DNA of 64,000 bases. It comes from an uncultured Spirochaetales bacterium. GTDB taxonomy: Bacteria > Myxococcota_A > UBA9160 > SMWR01. This document shows, one piece after another, positions 13,755-57,568 of the stretch (within the stretch, counting starts at the first letter, position 1; the number at the start of each line of letters is the position of its first letter). The position numbers and the translations under genes are program-made. Below the pieces are notes generated by a model that did no database searches, was not told where the DNA came from, and saw only the letters and a program-made list of their open reading frames with translations. The stretch lies in the NCBI GenBank assembly GCA_964624475.1, contig CAZUYC010000015.1, positions 9,124 to 73,123 on the forward strand, read 5' to 3'.

Positions 13755-13785
13755 GCCGGGCCCGACCGGGCCAGAGCGGGGAAGA

Positions 13786-13873
13786 GCGGGGACGGTCTTC
13801 AGATGTTTCGAATATTCAGATTCTCCCCAGAGGGCGAATCTGAATAAGCCAAACATCTGAAGACCGTCCCCGC
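13786..13873. repeat. 88-nt extended AT-richer hairpin between convergent genes (possible bidirectional terminator or MITE/REP-type element)
   Basis: A perfect 23-bp outer stem (13786-13808 with 13851-13873) and a perfect 11-bp inner stem (13813-23 with 13836-46), around a 12-nt apical region. It is preceded by the tandem 10-mer agagcgggga x2 (13773-13792). Confidence 0.7.
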
Positions 13874-13885
13874 CCTGCCTATGAC

Positions 13886-13929
13886 CTCCGCGCGCCTTCG
13901 GCTCGCTGCGCGCGCCTTTCGGCGCTTGC
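13886..13929 (+). repeat. REP-like intergenic element, copy A
   Basis: ctccgcgcgccttcggCTCGCTGCGCGcgcc, then hairpin gcgcc-tttc-ggcgc, then ttgc. It shares the 11-mer CTCGCTGCGCG and overall architecture with copies at 34043, 40848 and 56079/56141. Confidence 0.6.
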
Positions 13930-13952
13930 TCGGTCCGGCCTTCCGGCGGCGG

Positions 13953-15893
13953 CTACTGGTAGTCGCGCGGGATCTTCTCCTCCCAGGTCTTCTCGCGCAC
14001 GAGCGCGCCGTCCCGGAGCAGGCGCCGGGTGTAGCTCAGGGTGAAGTTCTCGAGGTCGCTGCGGAACCACGCGCGCGCCTCCCAGACGAGCGTGCGGTCC
14101 GGGAGCTCGACCGTCGTGCGGTACTCGCCGCGGACGGAGGTCGCTTCCGGATGATCGTCGCTGGCCTCGTGGGTGATCGTCTCCTCGAAGCGCTCCGTGC
14201 CCCAGGGGTAGCGGCTGCCGCCGCTGTTGCGGGCCGTCACCCTCGTCGTCCGGCTCTGCGGGTTGCGGTCGATCGAGGAGATCTCGCCGTATCCCGAGAC
14301 GGTCCCGGCGTCGAGGGTCTCGAAGCCCGGCAGCTGCGGGTCCTCCTCCGGGGGGGCGAAATCCGGCCGGGGCCGCCTTCCCTCGGGCACGACCGGGAGC
14401 ACGAGCCTCGTGGGTTCGTCGCCACCCAGGCGGAGCGAGGTGGTCATCGGGTAGGGGGTCGGCCAGAGCATCGGCCACTGGGAGTTGTTGATCGCGAGCC
14501 GCATCCGGTGCCCCTTCGGGAAGACCCATGACGTGAAGTGCATCTCGATGTCCAGGGAGACCTGCCGCCCGGGCACGAGTGGCTCGGGCTGCCTGGCCGA
14601 TTCGCGGTGCGCCCCGTTCATTCCGGCGCCCGCGACCTGCGTGACCGTGCCGTCGGGCGCGACATCGGAGAGGCGCGCGAACCAGTGGGCCAGCGGCGCG
14701 TCGGCCGACACCTGGAGGAGCGCCCGGGGGAGCCCCAGGATCTCCAGCTCCTCCTCCAGGGGCTCCGTGTCATAGACGAGGCTCATGGCGTCCGTCGGCC
14801 TCTGATCGTGGGCCGCGTCTCCCCACCACATCACGGGGCCGCCGGCTTCCACACCGGCCGTCGGGACGTAGCGAAGCCGGTGCGTGGCGGCGTCGGGGGC
14901 CTTCGCGCCGAGGCCATGGTCCGGCTGCGGGTAGAGCGTCCGCGCGCGGATGCGCTCGATCGGCCAGCCCTCCTCGAAGCGCCACTCCCCATCGACCTCT
15001 TCCAGGACGGGGCCCGGAGGGTGCCAGCGGCGCACGTACAGCGCGAAGCGCGGCTCGTCCAGGATCCCGGTGTCGCGCCCCTTGAGCCAGTGGTCGTACC
15101 AGCGCACCGCCTCGCGCCGCCACTCGATGCGCGGCTTCGGCTCGGCATCGTGCGGGAAGAAGTGGGACCACGGCCCGACGATCGCCTTCACGGGCGCCTT
15201 CACGTGCTCGAGCATGCGCGGCACGCTGTCGCGGTAGCCGTCGTACCAGCCGCCGATCACGAAGGTGGGGACGCGGATCGCGTCGTAGCGCGACCTCAGC
15301 GCCGTCCGGTCCCAGAACGGCCCGTCGCGCTGCTGGCGCTTGTAGGTCAGCATCCAGGGCCTCGTCTCGAAGCGGTTCCGGAAGTACGCCTCGTCGATCG
15401 CGTAGTCCGGCGCGCCGGGCCGCGCGTTGTCCAGGTCCTGGCTCATCTCCCACGAATCGACGTGCAGGATGCCGTCCATGAAGTGCACGTCGTCCTGGTA
15501 CAGGTCGTCGGTGGCGTCCACCGCGACGATCGCGCCGAGGGCGGGCGGGTTGCGCATCGCCATGTGGATCGAGTTGAAGCCTCCCCAGGAGATGCCGAAC
15601 ATGCCGACCTTGCCGCTCGAGAAGGGCTGCTTCGAGAGCCAGTCGATCACGAACTCGCCGTCTTCCTGCTCCTGATCGGTGTACTCGTACTCGATCAGCC
15701 GGCCCTCGCTGTTGCCGGTGCCCCGGATGTCGACGCGGGCCACGACGTAGCCGCGCCGCACGAAGTAGGAGTAGAGCGCGTGGTTCCGGGCCCGGGACTC
15801 GGCCTTGCGGTACGGAAGGTATTCGAGCAGCACCGGGTAGCGTTCGCCGGCCGCCCCTCCCGTCGGGACGAAGAGGTCCGCCGCCAGCCGCAC
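13953..15893 (-). CDS. CocE/NonD family hydrolase (S15 X-Pro dipeptidyl-peptidase type); true start probably upstream
   Basis: 646-aa ORF from GTG 15893, with ..GTGNSEG.. and GISWGGF (Ser nucleophile). The frame stays open upstream and encodes ..HRCVVVTAALLALADASPAAADEPSPPAYGIDLEEAWIPLPDG.. (signal-like), with no ATG/GTG/TTG. The nearest candidate is CTG at 16082. Confidence 0.85.
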   Translation of the reverse strand: MRLAADLFVPTGGAAGERYPVLLEYLPYRKAESRARNHALYSYFVRRGYVVARVDIRGTGNSEGRLIEYEYTDQEQEDGEFVIDWLSKQPFSSGKVGMFGISWGGFNSIHMAMRNPPALGAIVAVDATDDLYQDDVHFMDGILHVDSWEMSQDLDNARPGAPDYAIDEAYFRNRFETRPWMLTYKRQQRDGPFWDRTALRSRYDAIRVPTFVIGGWYDGYRDSVPRMLEHVKAPVKAIVGPWSHFFPHDAEPKPRIEWRREAVRWYDHWLKGRDTGILDEPRFALYVRRWHPPGPVLEEVDGEWRFEEGWPIERIRARTLYPQPDHGLGAKAPDAATHRLRYVPTAGVEAGGPVMWWGDAAHDQRPTDAMSLVYDTEPLEEELEILGLPRALLQVSADAPLAHWFARLSDVAPDGTVTQVAGAGMNGAHRESARQPEPLVPGRQVSLDIEMHFTSWVFPKGHRMRLAINNSQWPMLWPTPYPMTTSLRLGGDEPTRLVLPVVPEGRRPRPDFAPPEEDPQLPGFETLDAGTVSGYGEISSIDRNPQSRTTRVTARNSGGSRYPWGTERFEETITHEASDDHPEATSVRGEYRTTVELPDRTLVWEARAWFRSDLENFTLSYTRRLLRDGALVREKTWEEKIPRDYQ

Positions 15894-33998: not shown

Positions 33999-34042
33999 CT
34001 CATTCCTCCCCGGCCTCCCTCGTGCGGCGAGTAGCGAGGTCA

Positions 34043-34094
34043 GGCCCGCTGACTCCGCTCGCCTGCGGCTCGCTGCGCGCTCCGCTTGCGGCGG
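34043..34094 (+). repeat. REP-like intergenic element, copy B
   Basis: GGCCCGctgaCTCCGCTCGcctgcggCTCGCTGCGCGctccgcTTGCggcgg, lying between the D-aminoacylase stop and the bhmt start. Confidence 0.55.
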
Positions 34095-34123
34095 CGTCCC
34101 GCGATCGCGCAACGCGCCTTATA

Positions 34124-39431: not shown

Positions 39432-40823
39432 ATGCCCACGCAGGAATCCCTGGAGTCCTCCGCGGCGTCCGTCATGCCGCCCCCGTATCCGGGCGAGTAC
39501 CCCAAGATCGTGGTCTCGCCGCCGGGCCCGAAGGCCAGGGCGTGGAACGCCCGGGACCGGAAGGTCGTCTCACAGAACCTGACGCCGGACTACGAGCTGG
39601 TCGTCGACCGCGCCTCGGGGATGGTGGTCGAGGACCTGGACGGAAACCGCTACCTCGACTTCGCGGCCGGCATCTCCACCGCGTCCACCGGGCACTGCCA
39701 TCCCGAGGTGGTGAAGGCGATCCAGCAGCAGGCCGAGCGCCTGCTCCACATCTGCTACACCGACTTCCACTACCCGGCCTACATCGAGCTCTGCGAGACG
39801 CTCGCGCAGCTGGCGCCGATGTCCGGGCGCAAGCGCGTATTCCTGTCGAACTCCGGGGCGGAGGCGGTGGAGACGGCGATCAAGCTGGCGCGCGTCCGCA
39901 CCGGCCGGCAGAAGATCGTCGCGTTCTACGGCGCCTTCCATGGCCGCACGCTGGGCACGCTGACGCTCACCGCCAGCAAGCCGGTGCAGCGGATCGGGTA
40001 CGGGCCGCTGCTGCCGGAGGTCTACCACACCCACTTCTCGTACTGTTATCGCTGCCCGGTCAACCGGAAGCCGGACTCCTGTGACGTCCAGTGCCTCGAC
40101 CTGCTGACCGACTCGATGTTCCAGCACACGGTCCCCCCGCAGGAGGTCGCGGCCGTGCTGGTGGAGCCCGTGCAGGGAGAGGGAGGCTTCATCCCTCCGC
40201 ACCCTGAATTCCTACCCCGCCTGCAGACCCTCTGCCGCGAGCACGGCATCCTGCTGATCGCGGACGAGGTGCAGTGCGGCATGGGCCGCACCGGCAAGCT
40301 CTTCGCCTCCGAGCACTTCGGGCTCGACCCGGACATCTTCATCCTGGCCAAGGGGATCGCGTCGGGACTGCCGATCTCGGCCGTGATCGCGCGGGACGAG
40401 GTGATGAAGTGGAACGACGGGGGTCACGGCAGCACCTTCGGCGGCAACCCGCTGTCCTGTCAGGCGGCGCTGGCCACGCTGCGGCTCTTGCGCGGCGGTC
40501 TGATCGACAATGCAGGCCGGGTCGGAGCGGGGCTGCTCGCGAAGCTGCGCGGACTCATGGACCGGCATACGCTGATCGGCGACGTGCGCGGCATCGGCCT
40601 CATGATCGGGATCGAGATCGTGCGCGATCGCGATACGAGGGTGGCGGCACCGGACGAGCGCCAACGCATCGTCCGCCGGGCGTTCGAGCGGGGCCTGCTC
40701 ACGCTCCCGTGCGGGAAGTCGACGATCCGCCTCTCCCCGCCGCTGATCTGCACCGACTCCGATGCGGACAAGGCGGTATCGATTCTCGACGAGGTGCTGA
40801 CCGAGATCAGCGCCGAGCGCTGA
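39432..40823 (+). CDS. Class-III (GabT/ornithine/omega-type) PLP aminotransferase
   Basis: ATG 39432 in frame within ORF 38166..40823, 20 nt after the kamA stop. Motifs ..SNSGAEAVE.., ..FHGRT.., ..[15 protein letters not shown].., ..ILAKGIASG.. (PLP Lys), ..STFGGNP... Confidence 0.9.
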
Positions 40824-40830
40824 GCGCGGC

Positions 40831-40846
40831 GCCGAGCCGGCTCGGC
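40831..40846. terminator. Perfect 16-nt GC palindrome after the aminotransferase stop
   Basis: gccgagccggctcggc lies 8 nt after TGA 40821-23, between convergent operons. There is no U-run. Confidence 0.3.
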
Positions 40847-40847
40847 C

Positions 40848-40903
40848 GGCCCGAGAACTCCGCTCGGCTTCGCCTCGCTGCGCGCGCGCTCCGCGCGCTT
40901 GCC
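40848..40903 (+). repeat. REP-like intergenic element, copy C (best-preserved)
   Basis: GGCCCGagaaCTCCGCTCGgcttcgcCTCGCTGCGCG, then hairpin gcgcgcg-ctc-cgcgcgc, then TTGCC. Confidence 0.6.
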
Positions 40904-40904
40904 G

Positions 40905-42254
40905 TCACTTCGGGAGATTCTCCACGAACCTCGCCGAGGTCGAGGCGCGGACCTGCTCCAGGCCGACGCCGGGCATCAGCTCGATCAGGCAGAGCTCGCC
41001 CCGATCGAAGGAGAACACCGCGAGTTCCGTGATGACCATGTCGACCGCGTTGCGGGCCGTGAGCGGCAGATCGCATTCGGAGACCAGCTTCGGGCTCCCG
41101 TCGGGGTTGGTGTGGGTCATGGTGATGATGAGCCGCTTGGCTCCCGAGGCCAGGTCCATCGCGCCGCCGACGCCGAGCAGCGGCTTCCCCGGCACCGCCC
41201 AGTTCGCCAGGTTCGCGCCTGCATCCACCTGTAGTCCGCCCATGATGGCCACGTCCACGTGGCCGCCGCGGATCATGGCGAAGGAATCCGCGCTGTCGAA
41301 GTAGCTGGCTCCCGGCAGCGCGGTGACCGGGATCTTGCCGGCGTTCACCGGGTACTCCATCGCCCCGCCCTCCGCGGGCGCGGGGCCCACGCCCAGCATT
41401 CCGTTCTCGCTGTGCAGGATGATCCCGTGCTCTGGCGTGATCAGATCGGCCACCAGGGTGGGAATGCCGACTCCGAGGTTCACCACGTCACCGCTGCGGA
41501 GCTCGGCCAGCGCGCGGCGGGCCATGTTCATGCGCGCCGGATCCACCTTCCTGCCGCTCGACGCCACCGAGGCGGAGGAGCCCAGCTCCTCGAGGGTCAT
41601 GCGGGCCTGGACCAGATAATCCACGTAGCAGCCCGGGGTGTGGACGTGGTTGGGATCGATCTCGCCCAGCGGCACGATCGTCTCCACTTCGGCGATGACC
41701 AGGTCGGCCGCCGTCGCCATCGCCTTGTTGAAGTTCTGCTCGGTCATCCGGTAGACCAGGTTGCCGGCGGTATCGGCCTTCCAGGCGCGCAGGAAGGCCA
41801 CGTGGCCGCGCAGCCCCGGCACGAACACGTGCGGCTTGCCGCAGAGGATCCTCGTCTCCGCCTTCTCGGCGATGACCGTCCCGACCGAGGTCGGGGTGAA
41901 GAATCCACCGATCCCCGCGCCGCCCGCGCGCAGCGCCTCGGCCAGCGAGCCCTGGGGCAGGAGCTCCACCTCCAGGGTCCCCCGCTGTGCCGCCGCCACG
42001 GCCTCGGGATTGCTGGTGAAGAACGAGCCGATCGCCTTCTTGATCTGTCCGCTGCGCAGGAGCCGTCCACCGCCCAGCCCGACCTCGCCCACGTTGTTGG
42101 CGATGTAGACGAGCTCCCGCACGCCGGTCTCGGCCAGCGCGTGCAGGAGGTGGACCGGGTTCCCGGTCATGCCGAAGCCGCCGACCAGGATCGTGTCGCC
42201 GGTCTTGACCATGGCCACGGCCTGCTCGAGGGAGATCTGGGGAACTCGTTTCAC
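40905..42254 (-). CDS. 3-oxoacid CoA-transferase, fused A+B subunits
   Basis: GTG 42254, 7 nt after the thiolase stop. The N-terminal half has ..[15 protein letters not shown].. (subunit A). The C-terminal half has ..[10 protein letters not shown].. (SENG catalytic Glu, subunit B). Confidence 0.85.
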
Positions 42255-43542: not shown

Positions 43543-43872
43543 GACTCGACTCCGCTTCGCCTCCGCCGGGCTCGTTGAAGGCGCGCCCAACGGGGCAGAG
43601 CTTAGACCTCCGCCGTCCTCGGGTCACGCGAGGCGGGTGAGACGCGCCCCCCTGCCGTCCGGGGGGTCGTCGCGGCGGCCCGCTGTCTCTGCGAGGCGCG
43701 GCGAGCGTGCGCCCAGGAGGGATGGACTGCTGCCGTCCAGCAGATCTCCGCGGCGGCACGTAGCTCGCCTCGTGCGCGGGCCCCGTGAACGACCCGCGAA
43801 TCGCGCGTTCCTGAACCACGATTCTTCGGAGCCGGACCCGGGCACCGCGGAGCTTCCCAAGAGTCGTTTGAC

Positions 43873-43901
43873 TTGACGAAAACACTACATAGCACTAATC
43901 T
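43873..43901 (+). promoter_or_regulatory. Candidate sigma70-type promoter giving a leaderless RAYT transcript
   Basis: TTGACG (43873-78), then 17 nt, then TAATCT (43896-901). The ATG at 43909 lies 7 nt downstream and no SD is present. This is the only strongly AT-rich patch in this intergenic region. Confidence 0.3.
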
Positions 43902-43908
43902 ATCGGTG

Positions 43909-44607
43909 ATGCGACGGGCGCCGAGGCAGCTCACCTTCCACGAGCACCGGATGCGCTCGGGTCGAGGTGGCCCGAGGCCCGGCGCGGGGCGCCCGCGCCT
44001 GTCGGCGAACCCGCCCGTCCACCACGTCCGGCGTCCGCCGGTCCCCCGCGACTGCCCTTCCCACGTCACGCTGCGGCTGCTCCGGGGCCTCCCCGCGCTC
44101 CGAAGCCGCCGCTTCTTGCGCGAGCTGCGCGCGAGCCTGCGGGAGGCCTGCGCGCGCCGCGGCTTCCGCGTGGTGCACTACACCGTGCAGCGCAACCACC
44201 TCCACCTGTTCGTCGAGGCCGCGGGCAAAGAGGCCCTGGGTCGCGGCATGAAGGCGATCTCGGCCCGGGTCGCCCGCGCCGTGCAACGCGCCTTCGGCCT
44301 CAGAGGCCCGGTCCTTCACGGTCGCTACCACCTGCGCGTGCTGCGCACCCCGCGAGAGGTCCGGAACGCGCTGGCCTACGTCCTGCTCAATGCGCGCAAA
44401 CACTGGCGCGAGCGCCACGGCTCGCCGCCCCCGGAGCGTCTCGACGAGGCGTCCTCGGGCCGCTGGTTCCAGGGCTGGCGTCGAGCGTTCGGCTCGCGCG
44501 AGTCTCCGCCCGAGCGCCCCGAGGTCGCACCGCCCCGGACATGGCTCCTCGCGGCCGGCTGGCGCCGCCACGGCCTCATCGATCCCGCGGAGGTTCCCGG
44601 CGGCTGA
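43909..44607 (+). CDS. IS200/IS605-like Y1 HUH transposase, RAYT-like (REP-associated tyrosine transposase type)
   Basis: Frame of ORF 43873..44607. ..VHVTLRLLRGLPALRS.., ..FRVVHYTVQRNHLHLFVEA.. (HUH motif), ..REVRNALAYVLLNARKH.. (catalytic Tyr helix). Confidence 0.8.
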   Translation: MRRAPRQLTFHEHRMRSGRGGPRPGAGRPRLSANPPVHHVRRPPVPRDCPSHVTLRLLRGLPALRSRRFLRELRASLREACARRGFRVVHYTVQRNHLHLFVEAAGKEALGRGMKAISARVARAVQRAFGLRGPVLHGRYHLRVLRTPREVRNALAYVLLNARKHWRERHGSPPPERLDEASSGRWFQGWRRAFGSRESPPERPEVAPPRTWLLAAGWRRHGLIDPAEVPGG

Positions 44608-44639
44608 CGGGAGCGGGTCGAGCGGAGCGGGAGTCGCGG

Positions 44640-44801
44640 GATTGGAAGCCCTCCGCCTACAGTGGCGAGCGCCTTCCTCGTCCCCGGCAACCCCGCCGCT
44701 ACAAGGACAAGGTCCGCCGCAAGATCGCCGCCTATCACCGCTTCGTGCAGCTCGGCTGCCGGAATTTCTCGCGGATCCCGCCGCGCCGGGTGACGTGGTG
44801 A
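44640..44801 (+). other. Orphan high-GC3 ORF fragment without start codon (possible mobile-element gene relic)
   Basis: DWKPSAYSGERLPRPRQPRRYKDKVRRKIAAYHRFVQLGCRNFSRIPPRRVTW*. By my count most third codon positions are G/C, unlike the alternative frames. No family recognised. Confidence 0.3.
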
Positions 44802-45078
44802 AATTCGTCGGCCGAATCCGAAGCCCAGACATCCTGCGCGCTTACGAGCGCGCTGCATGACGCTCAGCGCCGCTCAACTCGCTACTCTCCATAATCGAAC
44901 AGGACTAGCATTTTGCCACATATCATAGTGAAATCATCTCATGCGAGAGCCCGCTCTCAAATGCCCTCTTGCGCGCCGGACGGCGACAGCTATTTCAACC
45001 TGTTCGTTGTTCGAAGCCGCCGACCGCAGAGGCGGCTTCATCGAGCGCTGGCGAATGCCGAGCGAATAGAGGTCAATC

Positions 45079-45594
45079 ATGGCGCAGGTCGGAACCTTGG
45101 CGTGGGCGCGCAAAACCGGCGGGCGGCTGCGCTTCCAGGATTGCGTGCGGTTGACCGGGCTTGCGGGCGCTGTGGTTTGGCTGCCGCGCCAACGCATCCT
45201 CATCGCCGGCGACACGGTTGTTTGGCCGATTCCGTATGAGTTCGACGTCTATCCCGCGGACAATATCGCTACGCTTGAGCGCCTGCGCGCTTACAATTAC
45301 CGTGCGCTCGTTCCAGGCCATGGCGAAGTGCAACGCGACAAGGCTTATTTGGATCTGCTGATCGCGTTCATGCGCGAAGTGCGTACGCAAATGGTGCCGC
45401 TGATCCAGCAGGGACTGACGGTCGAGGAAGCGACAGCACGCCTTACGCTTGATTCCAATGCACAGGCTTTCGCCGGCGAAGATCCCTGGCTGCGCTATTG
45501 GTTCCGCGAATATGCAATTGGCCCCTTCGCCGAGAGCGCCTACCGCGAAGCCAAGGGCGAACCGCTCGGGCCCGCGCCACCCGCCGCCTCATAA
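45079..45594 (+). pseudogene. C-terminal fragment of a metallo-beta-lactamase-fold protein
   Basis: ..AVVWLPRQRILIAGDTVV.., ..LVPGHGEV.. match the distal MBL motifs. The HxHxDH region is absent (in-frame TAG immediately upstream), and the position of the third His motif reads TGLAGA. Markedly lower GC. Confidence 0.5.
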
Positions 45595-45689
45595 GGGGCA
45601 ACGTATCTGTTTAGCGGGTCTCCTGCCGTGACGCCGTAGCGGCTGTCGGACGCCGACCGCTTCCACTCGATTCCAACCCCGCCATCTCG

Positions 45690-45959
45690 GTGGTCCGGCG
45701 CTTTCTGCGCTGCGGGCAGCCGGGCTGCGCCTGCCAGAAGCCCGGCGCCCAGGGCCACCGCCCCTACCACTACCTGGTCGTCACCCAGGCCCCGGGGAAG
45801 ACCGCGTCGGTCCTGCTCGCCCCGGGCCAGGTCGCGCGCGTGCGCCGCTGGACGCGAGACTTCAAACGACTCAAGCAGCTGCTCGAGCGCATCTCCCGGC
45901 TCAACACCCGGCTGATCCGGCTCGAGCGCGAGGCGCAGCGGCGCCAGGGCCGGCGGTGA
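45690..45959 (+). CDS. Small zinc-ribbon protein of the CG.P.C.C...HGPY type (DUF6788-like, transposon-associated from memory)
   Basis: ..VVRRFLRCGQPGCACQKPGAQGHRPYHYLVVTQAPGKTASVLL.. followed by a coiled-coil tail. GTG start. The frame is open upstream to 45615. Confidence 0.45.
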   Translation: MVRRFLRCGQPGCACQKPGAQGHRPYHYLVVTQAPGKTASVLLAPGQVARVRRWTRDFKRLKQLLERISRLNTRLIRLEREAQRRQGRR

Positions 45960-46168
45960 CGGCGGAGCGCCCGCGCTGCGCGGAATGCTCCCGGCTGCGG
46001 CGCGAAAACCGTCGGCTCCAGCAGCAGGCCGAGCGGCTCGCTCAAGTGTTGCCGATCGCGTCGAAGCGCCGAAAAATGAACACCGGGCCGGCGAGCTCGG
46101 ATAGCCTCCGCTCCGGACTCGTCAAGGCGCTGCGCGCCTCCTCCGCTTCGCTCTGGCCCTTCGGGTGA
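45956..46168 (+). pseudogene. Truncated N-terminus of a transposase (IS66-like leucine-zipper / PPSSD region)
   Basis: GTGA-coupled to the previous ORF. ..RCAECSRLRRENRRLQQQAERLAQVL....NTGPASSDSL.. resembles the C..C, zipper and (K)PPSSD layout. No catalytic domain follows. Confidence 0.4.
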
Positions 46169-46199
46169 CGAGTCCTCCGCTCCGGCTGGAGGTGAGTAT

Positions 46200-46225
46200 C
46201 GCCGGAAGGGAGGCCCCTTCCGGCG
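46200..46225. repeat. Strong GC hairpin inside the relic island
   Basis: cgccggaaggg-aggc-cccttccggcg (11-bp perfect stem, 4-nt loop). Confidence 0.6.
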
Positions 46226-46491
46226 CCGCAGCACAGAGCCGAAGGCGGCCATGAAGCAGCGATACGTTTGCGGTCGAACTCGCGCGAGGCCGTTCCGTTC
46301 CCACATCTCCCGTAGAGCGGGAACGGGAATCTGGAAGCTGGAGCGCAACTCACCAGTCCAACACGGCGAGCTCGGAGTTGTCAACTATGATCCGTACACC
46401 CCATCCCCGGGCGATCGGGCTCGCCCGCTCGGTCGACCCCCGCGGCCCCTGACCCGCGAGTCCCACCGCTGAGCTTCCTCCCCAGCGCTAG

Positions 46492-46716
46492 ACTCGCGTC
46501 GCCGGCACGCTTCGAGCGGCGGAGGGAGAGCGCGTCTTCAACGATGACGAGAAGGCCCTGCGTGTGAGCGCAGCGATCGAGCAGTCGATCGTACGCCTGC
46601 GGCTCGAGAGCCAGGGCGAGTTCGTCGCCCTGATCAACGCGATCGAGATGCAGCTCGAATCCTGCCAGCCCGTCGAGAAGGTCATGCGGCTCCTGGCCGA
46701 CGCCTTGCTCGCCTAG
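46492..46716 (+). other. Orphan C-terminal ORF fragment, unknown family
   Basis: ..ERVFNDDEKALRVSAAIEQSIVRLRLESQGEFVALINAIEMQLESCQPVEKVMRLLADALLA*. It has very high GC3 in this frame, and the listed minus ORF 46381..46782 is its codon-aligned shadow. It is bounded upstream by TAG 46489, and the only in-frame start is a late GTG at 46564. Confidence 0.3.
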
Positions 46717-46931
46717 GCCGAGGCCCGGGGCCTCGATGCGAAGCGACTCCGTCTCGCCCAGCGCCTCGACACCCTCGTCCACCGAATCCGCACACGCTCT
46801 TCTCTTTCACACGCTTCGGCAGTCGATCCACCACAAGGTGGCTTGCGAGCAACATTGAGAGGCTCATGTCTTTGCCAAACCCCTCCGCACAACAGATAGG
46901 AAAGTCGATGGCTGAGCGCCGTTAGGTTGTA

Positions 46932-47172
46932 GCGATCATCCTTCGAAAGGGTCACGTCGGCGCAGGTCAGGCGGCCGGGGCTCTTGTTGCACACCACCAG
47001 GGTGTGCCCCTGCTCGTCGCGCTCGTCCATGTGGGCGGCCCGGTACGGGGCCACCTCGACCGCCAGGGCCTTCACCAGCATCCGACGAGCCCCTCGCGAG
47101 CGAGCTCGTCCAGCGTGAACCCCTCGTAGCCCTCTTCCCTCGATTCCTTCCTCTCGATTGCCTTCAGCACTG
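46932..47172 (-). pseudogene. IS256-family (Mutator-type) transposase N-terminal remnant with frameshift
   Basis: Two frames join to read ..EGYEGFTLDELAREG|ARRMLVKALAVEVAPYRAAHMDERDEQGHTLVV.N.., the conserved IS256-family N-terminus. A 1-nt slip lies in the G-run of gcgagggg|ctcg near 47085. The DDE domain is absent. Confidence 0.6.
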
Positions 47173-47480
47173 GGTGGCGTCTCCTTCTCCTCGGCCTCCG
47201 CCGGAGTCTCGTTTGGTCACGCGGAAGGCTGCGCCGCCACACCGATTCGAGCACGACACTTCTGGGTATCTCTCCAGCTCTCCCTGACCTGGCGATGCTG
47301 GCCTACCGTGCGATGATCCTGGCCGCTGTGCTCGTCATCGCGTCGGTGGGAAGACTCCGCTCTTCGGGCCTCGAGGACGCCTGCCAGGTGTTCCTCGGGG
47401 TTGGGCAAGCGGCGTTTCCGGGCGAGATGGCCGAGCAGCCCGCGGCGCTCCACGCCGACGTGCCCACCGGCGAGTTCTGA

Positions 47481-52954: not shown

Positions 52955-54543
52955 TGGCCACGGTCCATGACGCGATCGTCGTCGGGGGCGGACACAACGG
53001 GCTGACCTGCGCCGCCTACCTGGCCCGGGCCGGACGCAAGGTGCTGGTCCTCGAACGGCGCCACATCCTGGGTGGCGCGACGGTCAGCGAGGAGACCTAT
53101 CCGGGGTTCACCTTCTCGTCGTGCTCCTACGTGGTGAGCCTGCTGCGCCCGCAGATCATCCGCGAGCTGGAGCTCTCCAGGCACGGCCTCGAGATCCTGC
53201 CGCTCGACTGGACCTACTCGCCCTACGAGGACGGCGCCGCGCTGCTGCGCGGCCCCGACCCCGAGATGAACCGCCGCAACATCGCGCGCTTCTCGCCGCG
53301 CGACGCGGATCGCTACGCGCTCTTCGGCCAGGCCATGGGAGAGCTCGGGCGACTGGTCAAGCCGCTGATCGAGGCGCCGACACCCGACCCCTCCCGCCTC
53401 GACCTCAGGACGATCCTCGAGCTGCTGCGGCTGGGCCGGCGATTCCGGGCGCTCGGCGAGGACGCGATCGCCACGAACCTCAAGATGATGACGATGAGCG
53501 CCGTCGACTTCCTGAGCGAATGGTTCGAGTCCGAGCGCCTGATCGGGCCGATGAGCGTGAGCGGCATCATCGGCACCTTCCTCGGCGTCCGATCGCCGGG
53601 AACCGCCTACGTGTTGCTCCACCACTACATGGGCGAGATCGACGGCGCCTTCCGGGCCTGGGGGCTGCAGAAGGGCGGGACCGGCGGGGTGGCCATGGCC
53701 ATCGCGCGCTCCGCGCAGGCCTTCGGCGCCGAGATCCGGACCTCGTCGCCGGTCGCGCGGATCCTGATCCGCGGGGGCGAGGCGCAGGGCGTCGTGCTGG
53801 AGAACGGCGACGAGCACTTCGCCAGGACGGTGATCAGCGGCGCCGACCCGCACCGCACCTTCCTCGGCATGGTCGGCGAGGAATGGCTCGACGCCGACTT
53901 CGCCCGGCAGATCCGGCGCTTCAAGATGCGCGGGTCGTCGGGAAAGGTGAATCTGGCGCTCGACTCCCTGCCCGAGCTCCCGGGCCTCGGGAGCGACTCC
54001 CCGGCGCTCAAGGGCGACATCACCATCTCGCCGAGCGTGGACTACCTCGAGCGCGCGTACGACGACGCGAAGTACGGCCGCTTCTCGCGGCGGCCCTGCC
54101 TGGACTGCGTGATCCCGTCGCTCTCGGATCCGTCGGTGGCGCCGCCGGGCAAGCACGTGATGAGCATCTTCGTCCAGTACGCGCCCTACAAGCTGAAGGA
54201 GGGGCCGGCGGACTGGGAGAACCAGCGCGAGGCCTTCGGCGATACGGTGCTCGACACGCTGGAGCGCTTCCTCCCGGGCATCCAGAAGCGCATCCTCCAC
54301 CGCCAGGTGCTGACGCCGTGGGATCTCGAGCAGACCTACGGCCTGACCGAGGGCAACATCTTCCACGGCGAGCTGAGCCTGGAGCAGCTCGCCTTCCTGC
54401 GGCCGGTCGCGGGCTGGGCCCGCTACAAGACGCCGATCCGGAAGCTCTGGCTCTGCGGCTCGGGTGCGCACCCGGGTGGCGGAATCATGGCTGCGCCCGG
54501 GCAGCTGTGCGCGAGGACCATGCTGAGATCGAGGGCGCTATGA
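52954..54543 (+). CDS. CrtI/COG1233-like NAD(P)/FAD-dependent oxidoreductase, paralog 2
   Basis: ATG 52954 overlaps the upstream TGA by 1 nt. ..HDAIVVGGGHNGLTCAAYLARAG.., ..YGLTEGNIFHG..GWARYKTP..LWLCGSGAHPGGGI... Collinear with paralog 1. Confidence 0.85.
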   Translation: MATVHDAIVVGGGHNGLTCAAYLARAGRKVLVLERRHILGGATVSEETYPGFTFSSCSYVVSLLRPQIIRELELSRHGLEILPLDWTYSPYEDGAALLRGPDPEMNRRNIARFSPRDADRYALFGQAMGELGRLVKPLIEAPTPDPSRLDLRTILELLRLGRRFRALGEDAIATNLKMMTMSAVDFLSEWFESERLIGPMSVSGIIGTFLGVRSPGTAYVLLHHYMGEIDGAFRAWGLQKGGTGGVAMAIARSAQAFGAEIRTSSPVARILIRGGEAQGVVLENGDEHFARTVISGADPHRTFLGMVGEEWLDADFARQIRRFKMRGSSGKVNLALDSLPELPGLGSDSPALKGDITISPSVDYLERAYDDAKYGRFSRRPCLDCVIPSLSDPSVAPPGKHVMSIFVQYAPYKLKEGPADWENQREAFGDTVLDTLERFLPGIQKRILHRQVLTPWDLEQTYGLTEGNIFHGELSLEQLAFLRPVAGWARYKTPIRKLWLCGSGAHPGGGIMAAPGQLCARTMLRSRAL

Positions 54544-56093
54544 GCCACGCGATCGTCATCGGCGCGGGGCACAACGGGCTGGTCGCCGCCCTCCAGCTGG
54601 CGCGGGCCGGCCGCGAGGTCACCCTCGTCGAGCGGCGCAGCGACGTGGGCGGGCTCTGCGCCGCGACCGGGCTCCACCCCGGTTTCACCGTCCCCGGCCT
54701 GCTCCACGACACCACGGGCGTGCGTCGCGACGTGGCCGCGGCGCTCGGCCTCTCGCGCTTCGGCCTCGAGTTCGAGGCGCAAGCGCCCGCCGTGCTCGCG
54801 GCGCACTCGGCGCACCGGGGAGTGGTCCTGCACGCCGACGGCCGGCGCTCTCGCGACGAGCTCGAGGCGCTGCACAAGGGCGACGGCGACGCCTACCTCC
54901 GCTGGCGCGCCTTCCTATCGCGTGTCCGCCGCTTCGTGGCGGGCGTGCTGGATCGGCCGCCGCCGTTGCTTCGACCGCGCTCGCTGCCGGAGCTGTGGAG
55001 CATTGGCAGGACGGGGCTCGGTCTCAAGCGCCTCGGCAACGCCGACATGCTCGAGCTGCTGCGCGTAGCACCCATGGGCTCGAGCGATTGGCTGCAGGAG
55101 TACTTCAGCGACCCGCTGCTTCCGGCGGCCCTCGCCGGGCCGGGGGTCACGGGCGCCTTCCTCGGGCCGCGGGCGGCCGGGAGTGCCGCCCGCGTGTTGC
55201 TCTACGAGTGCGTGCGCGGGCCGGAAGTGCGGGGCGGCCCTGCCGCGCTCACCGAATCGCTGCGGAAGGCCTTCGAGGCCGCGGGCGGGAAGATCCGATT
55301 GGAGGCGGAGGTCGCCCGGATCCTCGTCGAGAAGGGCGCGGTCGCCGGCGTGGGCTTCGTGGACGGGGGGAGCCTCGGGGCGTCGGTGGTGGTCGCGACC
55401 TGCGACCCGAAGCAGGCGCTGCTCGAGCTGGTCGAGCCGGGCGTGCTGCCGCTCCGGGTGGAGGAGCAGATCGGCGTCGTGCGCATGCGCGGGACGACGG
55501 CCAAGGTGAACCTCGCTCTCGACGGCCGGCTCTGCTTCCGCGGCCGCCCGGGGGAGCGGCACGGGCGAGCGTTCGTGGCGGACGACCTCGACGCGATCGA
55601 GCTCGCCTTCGACGCGGCCAAGTATCGCGCCTGCTCCGAGAGGCCCCACCTGGACGTCTGCGTGCCGAGCGCCGCAGACGCGTCGCTCGCGCCGGAGGGC
55701 AAGGACGTCGTGTCGATCCTCGCCCACTGCGCGCCGCACGACCTCGAGGGCGGCTGGAGCGACGGAGCCCGCGCGAGCTTCGGGGACGCGGTCGTCGAGG
55801 CGCTCGAGCGCGTGGCACCCGGCACGAAGGACCGGATCGTGGCGCGCGAGGTCCTCTGCCCCGCGGACCTCGAGGCCCGCTACGGGCTCACGGGCGGACA
55901 CGTCCACCACGGCGAGCACGCGCTCGATCAGCTGCTCTTCATGCGTCCGGCGCCCGCGCTGGCGCGCTACGCGACCCCGATCGCGGGGCTCTACCTCGGC
56001 GGCAGCGGCTCCCATCCGGGCGGCGGCGTCACGGGTCGACCGGGCGCGCTCGCGGCGCAGGCGATCCTCGCGGGCCCCGGCAAGGCGGCGTAG
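54540..56093 (+). CDS. CrtI/COG1233-like NAD(P)/FAD-dependent oxidoreductase, paralog 3 (more divergent)
   Basis: ATGA overlap with paralog 2. ..HAIVIGAGHNGLVAALQLARAG.., ..YGLTGGHVHHG..LARYATP..LYLGGSGSHPGGGVTG... Confidence 0.85.
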   Translation: MSHAIVIGAGHNGLVAALQLARAGREVTLVERRSDVGGLCAATGLHPGFTVPGLLHDTTGVRRDVAAALGLSRFGLEFEAQAPAVLAAHSAHRGVVLHADGRRSRDELEALHKGDGDAYLRWRAFLSRVRRFVAGVLDRPPPLLRPRSLPELWSIGRTGLGLKRLGNADMLELLRVAPMGSSDWLQEYFSDPLLPAALAGPGVTGAFLGPRAAGSAARVLLYECVRGPEVRGGPAALTESLRKAFEAAGGKIRLEAEVARILVEKGAVAGVGFVDGGSLGASVVVATCDPKQALLELVEPGVLPLRVEEQIGVVRMRGTTAKVNLALDGRLCFRGRPGERHGRAFVADDLDAIELAFDAAKYRACSERPHLDVCVPSAADASLAPEGKDVVSILAHCAPHDLEGGWSDGARASFGDAVVEALERVAPGTKDRIVAREVLCPADLEARYGLTGGHVHHGEHALDQLLFMRPAPALARYATPIAGLYLGGSGSHPGGGVTGRPGALAAQAILAGPGKAA

Positions 56094-56182
56094 CCGCCGC
56101 GCAGCGAGGCGGAGCCGAGCGAAGAGCGGGCCTCCGCTCTGGCAAGGCGGCGTAGCCGCCGCGCAGCGAGGCGGAGCCGAGC
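56079..56182 (-). repeat. REP-like element in reverse orientation, tandemly duplicated (copies D1/D2, 62-nt period)
   Basis: The 42-mer ggcaaggcggcgtagccgccgcgcagcgaggcggagccgagc occurs at 56079-56120 and 56141-56182, separated by gaagagcgggcctccgctct. Its reverse complement is gctcggctccgcCTCGCTGCGCG, then hairpin ggcggc-tac-gccgcc, then TTGCC. Copy 1 includes the last 4 codons and the stop of the upstream gene. Confidence 0.7.
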
Positions 56183-56197
56183 TGATAGAATCGACAG

Positions 56198-57568
56198 ATG
56201 CCCTCCGGCACGGAAACCCGCTACCCCTCGGGCCACGTTCTCTACCGGCGCCTCAACAGGCACTACCCGCGCATCGTGCGCGGTGACGGCTGCTGGCTCA
56301 CCGACGATCGCGGCAGGCGCTACCTGGACGCCTCCAGTGGCGCGCTGGTCACCAACCTCGGACACGGCAATGCGGAGGTGGCGCGAGCCGTGGGCGAGCA
56401 GGCGGCGCGCCTGGCCTACGTGAACGGCACGGCCTTCACCCACGACGCCATCGAAGAGCTCGCCGCCGAAGTGGCCGCCCTCTGTGCCGAAGGTCTCGAC
56501 AAGACGCTGTTCCTGTGCAACGGCGGCGATGCCGTGGAGGCCGCGCTCAAGATCTCGCGGCAGTTCTGGGCGGAATCGGGCCGGCCCGAGAAGCGGAAGA
56601 TCGTGGCCCTGACGCCGAGCTACCACGGGAACACGCTGCTCGCCCTCTCGGCGTCGGCCAGGCCGGGCTACCAGGAGCTCTTCCGGGACTGGCTGGTCGA
56701 GATCCACACGGCGCCGGCGCCCTATGCGTACCGCTGCTCGTGCCGCGGGGAGGCCGAGGAGTGCCCGGCCTGCAGCGGCGCCGCCGTGGAGCAGGCGATC
56801 CTGCGGGATGGGCCCGAGACGGTGGCGGCCTTCATCGCCGAGCCGGTGGGCGGGAGCTCGACCGGCGCGTCGGTGCCGCGTCCGGGCTACTGGAGGAAGG
56901 TCCGCGAGATCTGCGACCGCTACGAGGTGCACTTCGTCGCCGACGAGGTTCTCGCCGGCGCCGGCCGCACGGGCACCTGGTCGGCGCTGGAGCCCTACGG
57001 CGTCGCGCCGGACTTCCAGATCTTCGGCAAGGGGATCGCGGGAGGCTACGCCCCGTTGTCGGCGCTGGTGACGTCGCGTCGCATCCTCGACGTCCTGGCC
57101 GCGGGCTCCGGCGCCCCCCTGCACAACCAGACCTTCTCCCAGTTTCCGGTCTCCTGCGCGGCCGGCCTGGCGACCCTCCGCCAGATCAAGGCCCAGGGGC
57201 TCCTCGCGCGCTGCGCGAGCATGGGGACCGTCCTCTTCCAGCGCCTGGCCGAGCTGCTGGACCATCCCCACGTAGGAGACCTCCGCGGACGGGGGCTCCT
57301 CGCCGGCATCGAGTTCGTCGAGGACAAGGCGTCGCGCAAGCCCTTCGACCGGAGCCTGCGGATGGCGGAGACCCTCGGCGAGACGGCGCAGGAGGCCGGC
57401 CTCGTGCTGTGGACGCATGCCGGGCAGGCGGATGGCGGGGGCGGAGACCTGATCCTGATCGGCCCCCCGTTCATCATCACGGAGGACGAGATCTCCGAGC
57501 TGGTGGGTCGGCTGCGGACGGCCCTCGACACGGCGATCGAGCGGATCCGGGATCGGAAGCGCCGCTAG
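56198..57568 (+). CDS. Class-III PLP aminotransferase (omega-transaminase-like)
   Basis: ..GALVTNLGHGN.., ..CNGGDAVEAALK.., ..YHGNT.., ..FVADEVLAGAGRTG.., ..IFGKGIAGGY.. (PLP Lys). Confidence 0.9.
   Translation: MPSGTETRYPSGHVLYRRLNRHYPRIVRGDGCWLTDDRGRRYLDASSGALVTNLGHGNAEVARAVGEQAARLAYVNGTAFTHDAIEELAAEVAALCAEGLDKTLFLCNGGDAVEAALKISRQFWAESGRPEKRKIVALTPSYHGNTLLALSASARPGYQELFRDWLVEIHTAPAPYAYRCSCRGEAEECPACSGAAVEQAILRDGPETVAAFIAEPVGGSSTGASVPRPGYWRKVREICDRYEVHFVADEVLAGAGRTGTWSALEPYGVAPDFQIFGKGIAGGYAPLSALVTSRRILDVLAAGSGAPLHNQTFSQFPVSCAAGLATLRQIKAQGLLARCASMGTVLFQRLAELLDHPHVGDLRGRGLLAGIEFVEDKASRKPFDRSLRMAETLGETAQEAGLVLWTHAGQADGGGGDLILIGPPFIITEDEISELVGRLRTALDTAIERIRDRKRR

Follow-up and report, generated by a model that had tools for sequence, protein, structure and literature searches.

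Classical REPs carry an unpaired conserved tag, GT[AG]G or CGTC, at one end of a palindrome (PMC3733652, PMC6006769), and REP-RAYT systems are defined by a layout in which the RAYT gene has its cognate REPs at its flanks (PMC5581495, PMC6006769). REP super-families (CGTC) without a dedicated transposase have been described (PMC3733652), as have TnpA-Y1 subclasses (2.1 and 2.3) that possess C-terminal extensions and have no REP associated with them (PMC6006769). The repeat analysed here was found in a 64-kb window, by which we mean the whole stretch of DNA studied, and it resembles classical REPs in being short, abundant and extragenic, in preferring the 3' ends of genes, in having a hairpin with an unpaired conserved tag at its foot, in occurring in both orientations and in forming lineage-specific subfamilies; like the CGTC super-families, it appears to lack a dedicated transposase. 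It differs from them in the bases at the foot of the hairpin, which are ...GCGCG and CTTGC (GCAAG on the other strand) and not GT[AG]G or CGTC. Moreover, REPs conserve the stem, whereas here a 25-nt unpaired tail with a 3-bp mini-hairpin is conserved and the main stem is free, and this 25-nt module is near-identical in 46 species-level genomes among the matches listed.

In the first-pass annotation, five copies of the repeat had been placed at four intergenic sites of the window, and three types of search agreed with this count. The exact 11-mer CTCGCTGCGCG occurred five times (at 13902, 34069 and 40874 on the forward strand and at 56098 and 56160 on the reverse strand), and its one-mismatch variants appeared at the chance rate in this DNA of 70% G+C. 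A mismatch scan with the 25-nt module TCGCTCGSCTNCGSCTCGCTGCGCG as query yielded five matches with two mismatches or fewer, none with three to five, and numbers equal to the random expectation with six or seven; in 30 Markov-1 random windows, the mean number of module sites at three mismatches or fewer was 0. With a gapped profile HMM, the five copies scored around 21–31 bits, compared to 6.7 bits for the next match in the window and maxima of 5–8.5 bits in random windows, so that nothing intermediate was found. All five occurrences of the 11-mer fell in gaps between genes called by a GC3-based model, the flanking genes being checked with Pfam, in agreement with the earlier statement that the exact 11-mer was not found in coding sequence. 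The spacers that contain copies are 13755–13952 and 40824–40904, both between convergent genes, 33999–34123, between two minus-strand genes, and 56094–56197, between two plus-strand genes.

The conserved module, which is longer than the 11-mer noticed at first, has the form TCGCTCG-S-CT-N-CG-S'-CTCGCTGCGCG and is nearly invariant over its 25 nt. Its structure was analysed on sets of 157–172 copies from 46 genomes, made up of the window and the loci among the matches listed, where at least 172 copies were found at four mismatches or fewer. The scan pattern allowed all four S/S' combinations, and the two bases were complementary in 152 of the 157 copies among the matches listed (C..G in 92, G..C in 60, CC in 3 and GG in 2), with both complementary states present together in 20 of the 46 genomes. 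The base N varied freely and independently of the S state (G in 82, T in 47, C in 15 and A in 13 of the same matches). Therefore, positions S and S' covary as the central pair of a 3-bp mini-hairpin stem, G-S-C/G-S'-C, closed by a three-base loop.

A second hairpin follows, in which the final G of the module and the C of CTTGC form the closing pair, and both its sequence and its length are free: 73 distinct sequences were counted among 83 second hairpins with at least three perfect outer pairs in the matches listed, stem length varied between 2 bp and over 10 bp, and the segment from the closing G to the C was 4 to 40 nt long. The most widespread version was the minimal hairpin G-CTTCG-C (31 copies in 16 of the 46 genomes among the matches listed), and certain subfamilies have no second hairpin (GCGCG-AAA-CTTGC). 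Pairing was maintained despite this freedom. Among the matches listed, 85 of 111 simple second hairpins were perfect, and in 15 copies of equal length, 98.5% of the cells were paired, compared to 73% after shuffling (none of 500 shuffles reached the observed value) and 33–53% in slid controls. When 3' arms were swapped between copies, Watson-Crick pairing fell from 0.90 to 0.66. The earlier claim of a hairpin that differs in sequence between the window copies while keeping its pairing was thus borne out, both in the window and in the additional copies.

Copy 1 (13883–13929, forward strand, 24.8 bits by HMM) lies between convergent genes and consists of a module at 13888–13912, with two mismatches and in the C..G state, and a second hairpin at 13912–13925 (GCGCC-TTTC-GGCGC) that ends in CTTGC at 13925–13929; the minus-strand gene 13953–15893 has its stop codon 24 nt away. 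Directly 5' of this copy, at 13780–13879, there is a near-perfect palindrome of 100 nt, with arms of 48 nt that are 88% complementary and a centre that is AT-rich despite the 70% G+C of the genome, and no second copy of this palindrome was found in the window or in the fetched loci L001–L115 (L numbers denote fetched loci throughout). Copy 2 (34039–34089, forward strand, 31.5 bits by HMM) is composed of an optional upstream hairpin at 34039–34053 (GTCAG-GCCCG-CTGAC), a module at 34055–34079 in the C..G state and a minimal hairpin at 34079–34085 (G-CTCCG-C), with CTTGC at 34085–34089; as it is flanked by two minus-strand genes, its forward strand is antisense to both.

Copy 3, the element around which the first-pass annotation was written, spans 40836–40902 on the forward strand (31.2 bits by HMM), with an upstream hairpin at 40836–40850, a module at 40860–40884 in the G..C state and a second hairpin at 40884–40898 (GCGCGC-TCC-GCGCGC). 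A gap of 2 nt separates its CTTGC (40898–40902) from the stop codon of gene 40905–42254, which is on the minus strand. Copy 4, detected by both the mismatch scan and the HMM, occupies 56080–56140 on the reverse strand, where the upstream hairpin (56140–56123, AGAGCGG-AGGC-CCGCTCT) is followed by a module without mismatches in the G..C state (56122–56098), the second hairpin (56098–56084, GGCGGC-TAC-GCCGCC) and CTTGC (56084–56080). The TAG stop codon (56091–56093) of the plus-strand FAD-oxidoreductase gene 54507–56093 is located in the loop of this second hairpin, and the last ~4 codons of the gene consist of element sequence; therefore, the native end of the gene was replaced by the insertion. 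Copy 5 (56142–56184, reverse strand) is a 5'-truncated tandem duplicate of copy 4 with a period of 62 nt and an identical hairpin (module 56184–56160, hairpin 56160–56146, CTTGC 56146–56142), and it lies 14 nt ahead of the ATG with which gene 56198–57568 starts.

Each of the five copies ends in CTTGC, in agreement with the closing TTGC(C) reported at first. The GGCCCG prefix, in contrast, had been described as common to the copies and was present in only three of the five, the remaining two being without it; elsewhere it is specific to subfamilies, as are the other optional 5' parts, namely upstream hairpins, CCTCCTTATGG... and partial duplications of the module. An upstream third hairpin was detected in 35% of the copies, compared to 28% for the background further upstream, so it is regarded as optional, and a general third hairpin was rejected. 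Thermodynamic z-scores of single copies ranged from -0.5 to -1.6 on the two strands, values that are uninformative at 70% G+C. A long form of ~125 nt (GCCGGGCCTTCGCGCTCGCTAYTCGCTCGCGCTCGGGC...module...TCGGCCGAC-loop-GTCGGCCTCCTTGC) was observed in L009, L025, L026, L034, L049, L076, L163 and L114; it shows 91–93% identity between different MAGs, and its hairpin includes an internal loop, T-C/C-T, that is conserved.

Exceptionally stable DNA mini-hairpins are formed by G-N-A triloops with a closing C:G pair. On the strand opposite to that described at first, 60 of 76 triloops were G-N-A, the loop of the mini-hairpin was also G-N-A with N free, and the minimal second hairpin read GCGAAGC. Since these triloops are found on the reverse strand, the active or structured strand is probably the GCAAG one, 5'-GCAAG-hairpin-CGCGCAGCGA-(GSC-GNA-GSC)-GAGCGRAG; an example of the element as a single-stranded oligonucleotide is 5'-GCAAGCGAAGCGCGCAGCGAGCCGCAGGCGAGCGAAGTC (plus its complement). 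The invariant module contains two TCGCT half-repeats and the copies are intergenic, features that would also be expected if the family were a multiplied binding site on double-stranded DNA, such as an operator, a nucleoid-protein site or a promoter element like the sigma-54 -12 TTGC box. However, the S/S' flip keeps complementarity while it changes the base identity of both half-sites, which fits a hairpin and not a sequence-specific duplex site, and the variable length of the hairpin excludes a fixed -24/-12 spacing. The spacing likewise does not fit a sigma-54 or sigma-70 promoter reading of TTGC/TTGAC, and no promoter-like sites were found in a scan of the region around copy 3 (40600–41100). 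A duplex binding site is accordingly considered very improbable.

The pattern GCTCGSCTNCGSCTCGCTGCGCG was scanned against one genome per species, and at least 110 further stretches were recovered from 45 MAGs, nearly all of them labelled Myxococcota or delta proteobacterium and many with soil names (SMAG, CTSoil); none of these stretches overlaps the window. Among the matches listed, 133 of 157 copies (~85%) were intergenic, compared to a DNA background of which 85.5% was called coding and 14.5% non-coding. Both the existence of further copies and their intergenic bias were thereby established. The 64-kb window contains 4 sites, and in loci that had not been ascertained by the pattern there was about one copy per 17–20 kb. 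Copy ends were commonly 0–30 nt from a stop codon in either orientation. Dispersed copies sort into subfamilies, which coexist within genomes, and some subfamilies end in a Shine-Dalgarno-like AAGGAGG right before a start codon. A search of the literature by sequence string and by topic returned no description of the sequence or of a Myxococcota REP family.

Several MAGs labelled 'uncultured Spirochaetales' also carry the repeat (L007, L010, L014, L031, L035, L036 and other 'binchicken' loci), and this taxonomic label looks doubtful. Close Y1 homologues are encoded in one of these MAGs, CAYPSI (L010, L111). In a MAG labelled Longimicrobiaceae, two paralogous regions that are 87–92% identical (L005 6400–6470 and L075 1040–1110) have the module, with one mismatch, enclosed as a loop by a perfect stem of 18 bp and without CTTGC; this form may represent either distant kinship beyond Myxococcota or an artefact of binning.

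When copies lay within 400 nt of each other, all neighbouring pairs among the matches listed were direct (23 direct, 0 inverted). The copies of an array share the same hairpin, the window pair included, which indicates that arrays are local direct duplications. REPINs or BIMEs and REPtrons are similar in that elements cluster and a TnpA-REP-like Y1 HUH protein is present in the same genomes; however, REPINs and BIMEs are organized as inverted doublets or alternating arrays, whereas the clusters here are exclusively direct tandems.

The orientation of the copies relative to genes was followed at 141 merged sites among the matches listed. The CTTGC strand was antisense at 50 co-directional sites and sense at 18 (p=1.3e-4), and the rest were convergent (23), divergent (13), inside genes (12) or unclassified at the edge of a locus (25). 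An inconsistent orientation had been inferred at first from the window; both orientations do occur across the family, but within the window this statement does not hold, as the two co-directional sites (34043 and 56079–56182) are oriented alike with respect to their genes, in the direction of the majority, and the other two sites are convergent and thus uninformative. GC skew, used as a proxy for replication direction, agreed with the prediction at 53 of 99 loci, and there was no correlation with gene strand either.

GC skew could not separate replication from transcription. The 50:18 bias keeps an RNA-level role as a live rival. Under this explanation, the RNA form would be functional, the GCAAG strand being present in the mRNA as a 3' UTR, an intercistronic spacer or a 5' leader, for example as a protein-binding site or an exonuclease barrier, with dispersal as a secondary matter. 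The GCAAG strand as the sense strand at 50 sites vs 18, the agreement of both informative window sites, the common start of copies 0–30 nt past a stop codon, the module kept across 46 genomes among the matches listed and the AAGGAGG just upstream of the start codon in some subfamilies are all consistent with it. Against it, around one quarter of the co-directional sites have the opposite orientation and copies are also located in convergent and divergent spacers. Mismatches in the stems amounted to only 11 events (4 G.T and 7 A.C); both types are rare, so there is no excess of wobble pairs on either strand of the kind expected of an RNA stem, and wobble asymmetry was rejected as a means to choose the RNA strand. 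No Rfam match was obtained at the gathering threshold in the whole window, nor at E<=10 in the region 55900–56300. The CTTGC tail has no T-run and is not an intrinsic terminator, none being detected in a scan of 40600–41100. Moreover, one copy was found decayed (L004) and another was read through as protein (L044). An RNA-level function as the primary explanation is judged unlikely. No relation to tRNA or tmRNA was found, and the window has no tRNAs.

Comparison of equivalent gene junctions between genomes revealed that the repeats are inserted DNA, in some cases within the last codons of genes. One junction was found in three states: empty in L017, with a 10-nt spacer; occupied in L079, where a complete copy lies 9 nt away from the start codon; and with a decayed copy in L004. 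Similarly, a 16-nt spacer in L047 corresponds to an insert of ~95 nt in L088 that ends exactly at CTTGC. In L113 (9140–9300), two genes overlap (GTGA) without any spacer, and at the same junction L044 (5640–5725) contains an 81-nt composite copy that is read in frame as 27 extra codons. These codons end a gene for a CoA-binding-domain protein, whose stop codon still overlaps the start codon of the following gene (SUI1) as ATGA. At a further junction, L016 and L115 bear copies of different subfamilies. Composite forms of ~100 nt were 91–97% identical between dispersed sites and MAGs, their flanking genes being far more diverged. No target duplication was visible at L047/L088 or at L113/L044, and since the genomes compared are only 70–89% identical, both this absence and the boundaries are approximate. 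Terminal inverted repeats were also absent, as the 5' end (..GACTYCGCTCG) is not complementary to the 3' end (..CTTGC). When 734 predicted proteins encoded beside copies were clustered, only housekeeping families recurred and no mobile-element family did. The intergenic location, the two orientations, the presence, absence and decay of copies, the subfamilies and the lack of Rfam matches support the earlier proposal of a REP-like element acting at the DNA level over a classical cis-regulatory RNA.

The ends of IS200/IS605 elements and of their miniature derivatives are similar in that they have no terminal inverted repeats or visible target duplication, in that a hairpin lies a few bases from a fixed terminal motif, and in that pairing would matter on one strand, as for single-stranded DNA transposition. 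In contrast, the two hairpins of this repeat are unlike each other and one is unconserved in sequence, and no full-length element bearing tnpA or tnpB with these ends was seen. MITEs such as Correia, ERIC and RUP are likewise non-autonomous, intergenic and at times read through in genes or mRNAs, but the present element is much shorter and has neither terminal inverted repeats nor a visible target-site duplication.

Integron attC sites have short conserved flanks around a hairpin that varies freely while remaining paired, which implies that folded single-stranded DNA is recognised by its shape. The repeat resembles attC in its conserved flanks and in a hairpin free in sequence and length with its pairing kept; it differs in that no integrase genes, cassettes or R'/R'' core sites are present and in that copies are single and located among housekeeping genes. 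Although the element behaves much as a REP does, it lacks defining features of classical REPs, REPINs/BIMEs, REPtrons, MITEs and intrinsic terminators.

A Y1 HUH transposase of the RAYT type had been proposed at 43909–44607 (forward strand), and what was upheld of this assignment is a Y1 HUH protein that is TnpA-REP-like. Alignment with homologues set the start codon at ATG 43909. The protein matched Pfam Y1_Tnp weakly (27 bits, cut-off 23), its best NCBIfam match was REP_Tyr_transpos at 38 bits, below the cut-off of 80, and the HUH motif (HLH, residues 98–100) and the Y-x3-N motif (Y158-VLL-N162-A) are conserved, with residue numbers counted from the GTG at 43906. The signature of class-2 TnpA-Y1 proteins is Y---NP. 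Among known structures, the predicted model (pLDDT 72) was closest to 4ER8, a TnpA-REP bound to a REP hairpin (E 2e-5, TM 0.39/0.53), followed by the ISDra2, IS200 and IS608 transposases. These matches, the motifs and the fold, which is closest in the prediction to that of E. coli TnpA-REP, identify the ORF as a TnpA-REP-like Y1 protein.

The layout around this gene did not correspond to that of a REP-RAYT system. Degenerate partial matches to the repeat had been reported at 43763–80 and 44619–40, but these were recovered neither by the mismatch scan (up to seven mismatches) nor by the HMM and are at chance level. No copy above chance was found beside the gene by the mismatch scan, the gapped HMM or a repeat finder, and the inverted repeats around it are only 74–81% complementary in DNA of 70% G+C. 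A look-alike noticed by eye at 43546–43575 gave no match with the HMM. The search was extended to the homologues of the protein, and no flanking copies, inverted or otherwise, were present at the six genes of five loci fetched by protein identity (L111–L115). Among 80 metagenomic loci of homologues (410 kb, with at least 300 nt of upstream flank in 60 and of downstream flank in 70), only 6 copies were found, the nearest 2.2 kb from the Y1 gene. Thus, none of ~85 Y1 loci in total has a copy within 2 kb, and the classic REP-RAYT layout reported for the window was not supported.

Homology between the Y1 loci covers the ORF and ~70 nt upstream of the start codon and stops at the stop codon. In homologues with 50–90% identity, an AT-rich block that resembles a promoter, TTGACa-N17-TAATCT, recurs ~40 nt ahead of the ATG (regions 43840–43908 of the window, L111 9930–10000 and upstream of the L116–L162 genes), and the neighbourhoods of these homologues are unrelated, as if gene and promoter were moved or retained as a unit. 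A REPtron is expected to have a single RAYT for each REP family in a genome, inherited together with it. Two homologues are encoded in one MAG (L010, L111) and two on one contig (L114); in L114 178–4643, on the same contig as L130, two inverted Y1 genes flank a gene for an IS91-type Y2 transposase (Zn_Tnp_IS91 + Y2_Tnp). The region downstream of the window Y1 gene, 44608–47294, has a low coding density, with a DUF6788 ORF (45690–45959) and an ORF without Pfam match (45079–45594), and may represent mobile-element remnants.

Binding and cleavage of the hairpins by the Y1 protein or its paralogues, with mobilisation of the repeat in trans, would be a special case of the explanation preferred here and not an alternative to mobility. 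In its favour are the HUH (HLH) and Y-x3-N motifs, the Pfam match, the identity of the best NCBIfam and structural matches, and the close homologues that share contigs or MAGs with the repeat (L010 and L111 of CAYPSI, L114, L116, L117 and L124). On the other hand, copies never flank the ~85 Y1 loci, in which they differ from REPtrons, copies are no denser around close homologues (~1 per 17 kb) than in the background, conservation at the Y1 loci is restricted to the ORF and the promoter-like block, the NCBIfam score is far under its cut-off, Y1 subclasses without REPs are published (PMC6006769) and shared lineage explains the co-occurrence. A REP-RAYT system is judged unlikely.

The reading that we prefer, at a probability of roughly 0.55, is that of a family of short (~45–125 nt), non-coding and non-autonomous REP-like repeats that have multiplied as DNA in the intergenic regions of one uncultured lineage of soil Myxococcota, with around one site per 15–20 kb. 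Repetition, structure, intergenic bias, insertion polymorphism, clusters that are only direct and the lack of RAYT flanking are direct observations. Copying would involve single-stranded DNA as an intermediate and an enzyme supplied in trans, which would read the invariant unpaired module and the geometry of the two hairpins and not the sequence of the second one; an HUH-type single-strand nuclease would be the most natural candidate. Arrays arise through local duplication, and inserted copies may secondarily act on the mRNA that contains them. Several findings go against this reading. The 25-nt module is near-identical across 46 species-level genomes among the matches listed, a conservation that exceeds that of typical selfish REPs and could reflect a host function. 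The single HUH gene of the window has no copies at its flanks, and no family of mobile-element genes recurs beside copies. The 50:18 orientation bias would be predicted by an RNA-level role as well, GC skew yielded no usable replication signal, and the junctions compared belong to genomes of only 70–89% identity, which leaves the boundaries and the lack of target duplications approximate. A more specific version, to which we attach a low likelihood, is a distinct single-strand DNA element, with an unpaired 25-nt module that includes a G-N-A triloop mini-hairpin and with a hairpin recognised by its shape, mobilised by an enzyme that is neither encoded in its vicinity nor a classical flanked RAYT. 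This enzyme could be the REP-less Y1 family with the conserved promoter or an unrelated nuclease.

The repeat adds a large and previously undescribed family to Myxococcota, for which no REP-like elements were described in the literature searched. Its conserved tail and free stem are the reverse of the situation in classical REPs, and this reversal distinguishes the features read by the copying machinery, an unpaired motif and the shape of a hairpin, from those that it ignores. It also provides a clean negative case against the habit of assuming a REP-RAYT system when the two parts occur together in one window. In practical terms, the repeat is a marker for annotation, as copies give real genes their stop codons and extra codons and can mislead gene callers. 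If it is true that the REP-less Y1 family acts on the repeat, this would assign a function to a widespread orphan group of HUH proteins and would be the first substrate of 'domesticated' Y1 proteins.
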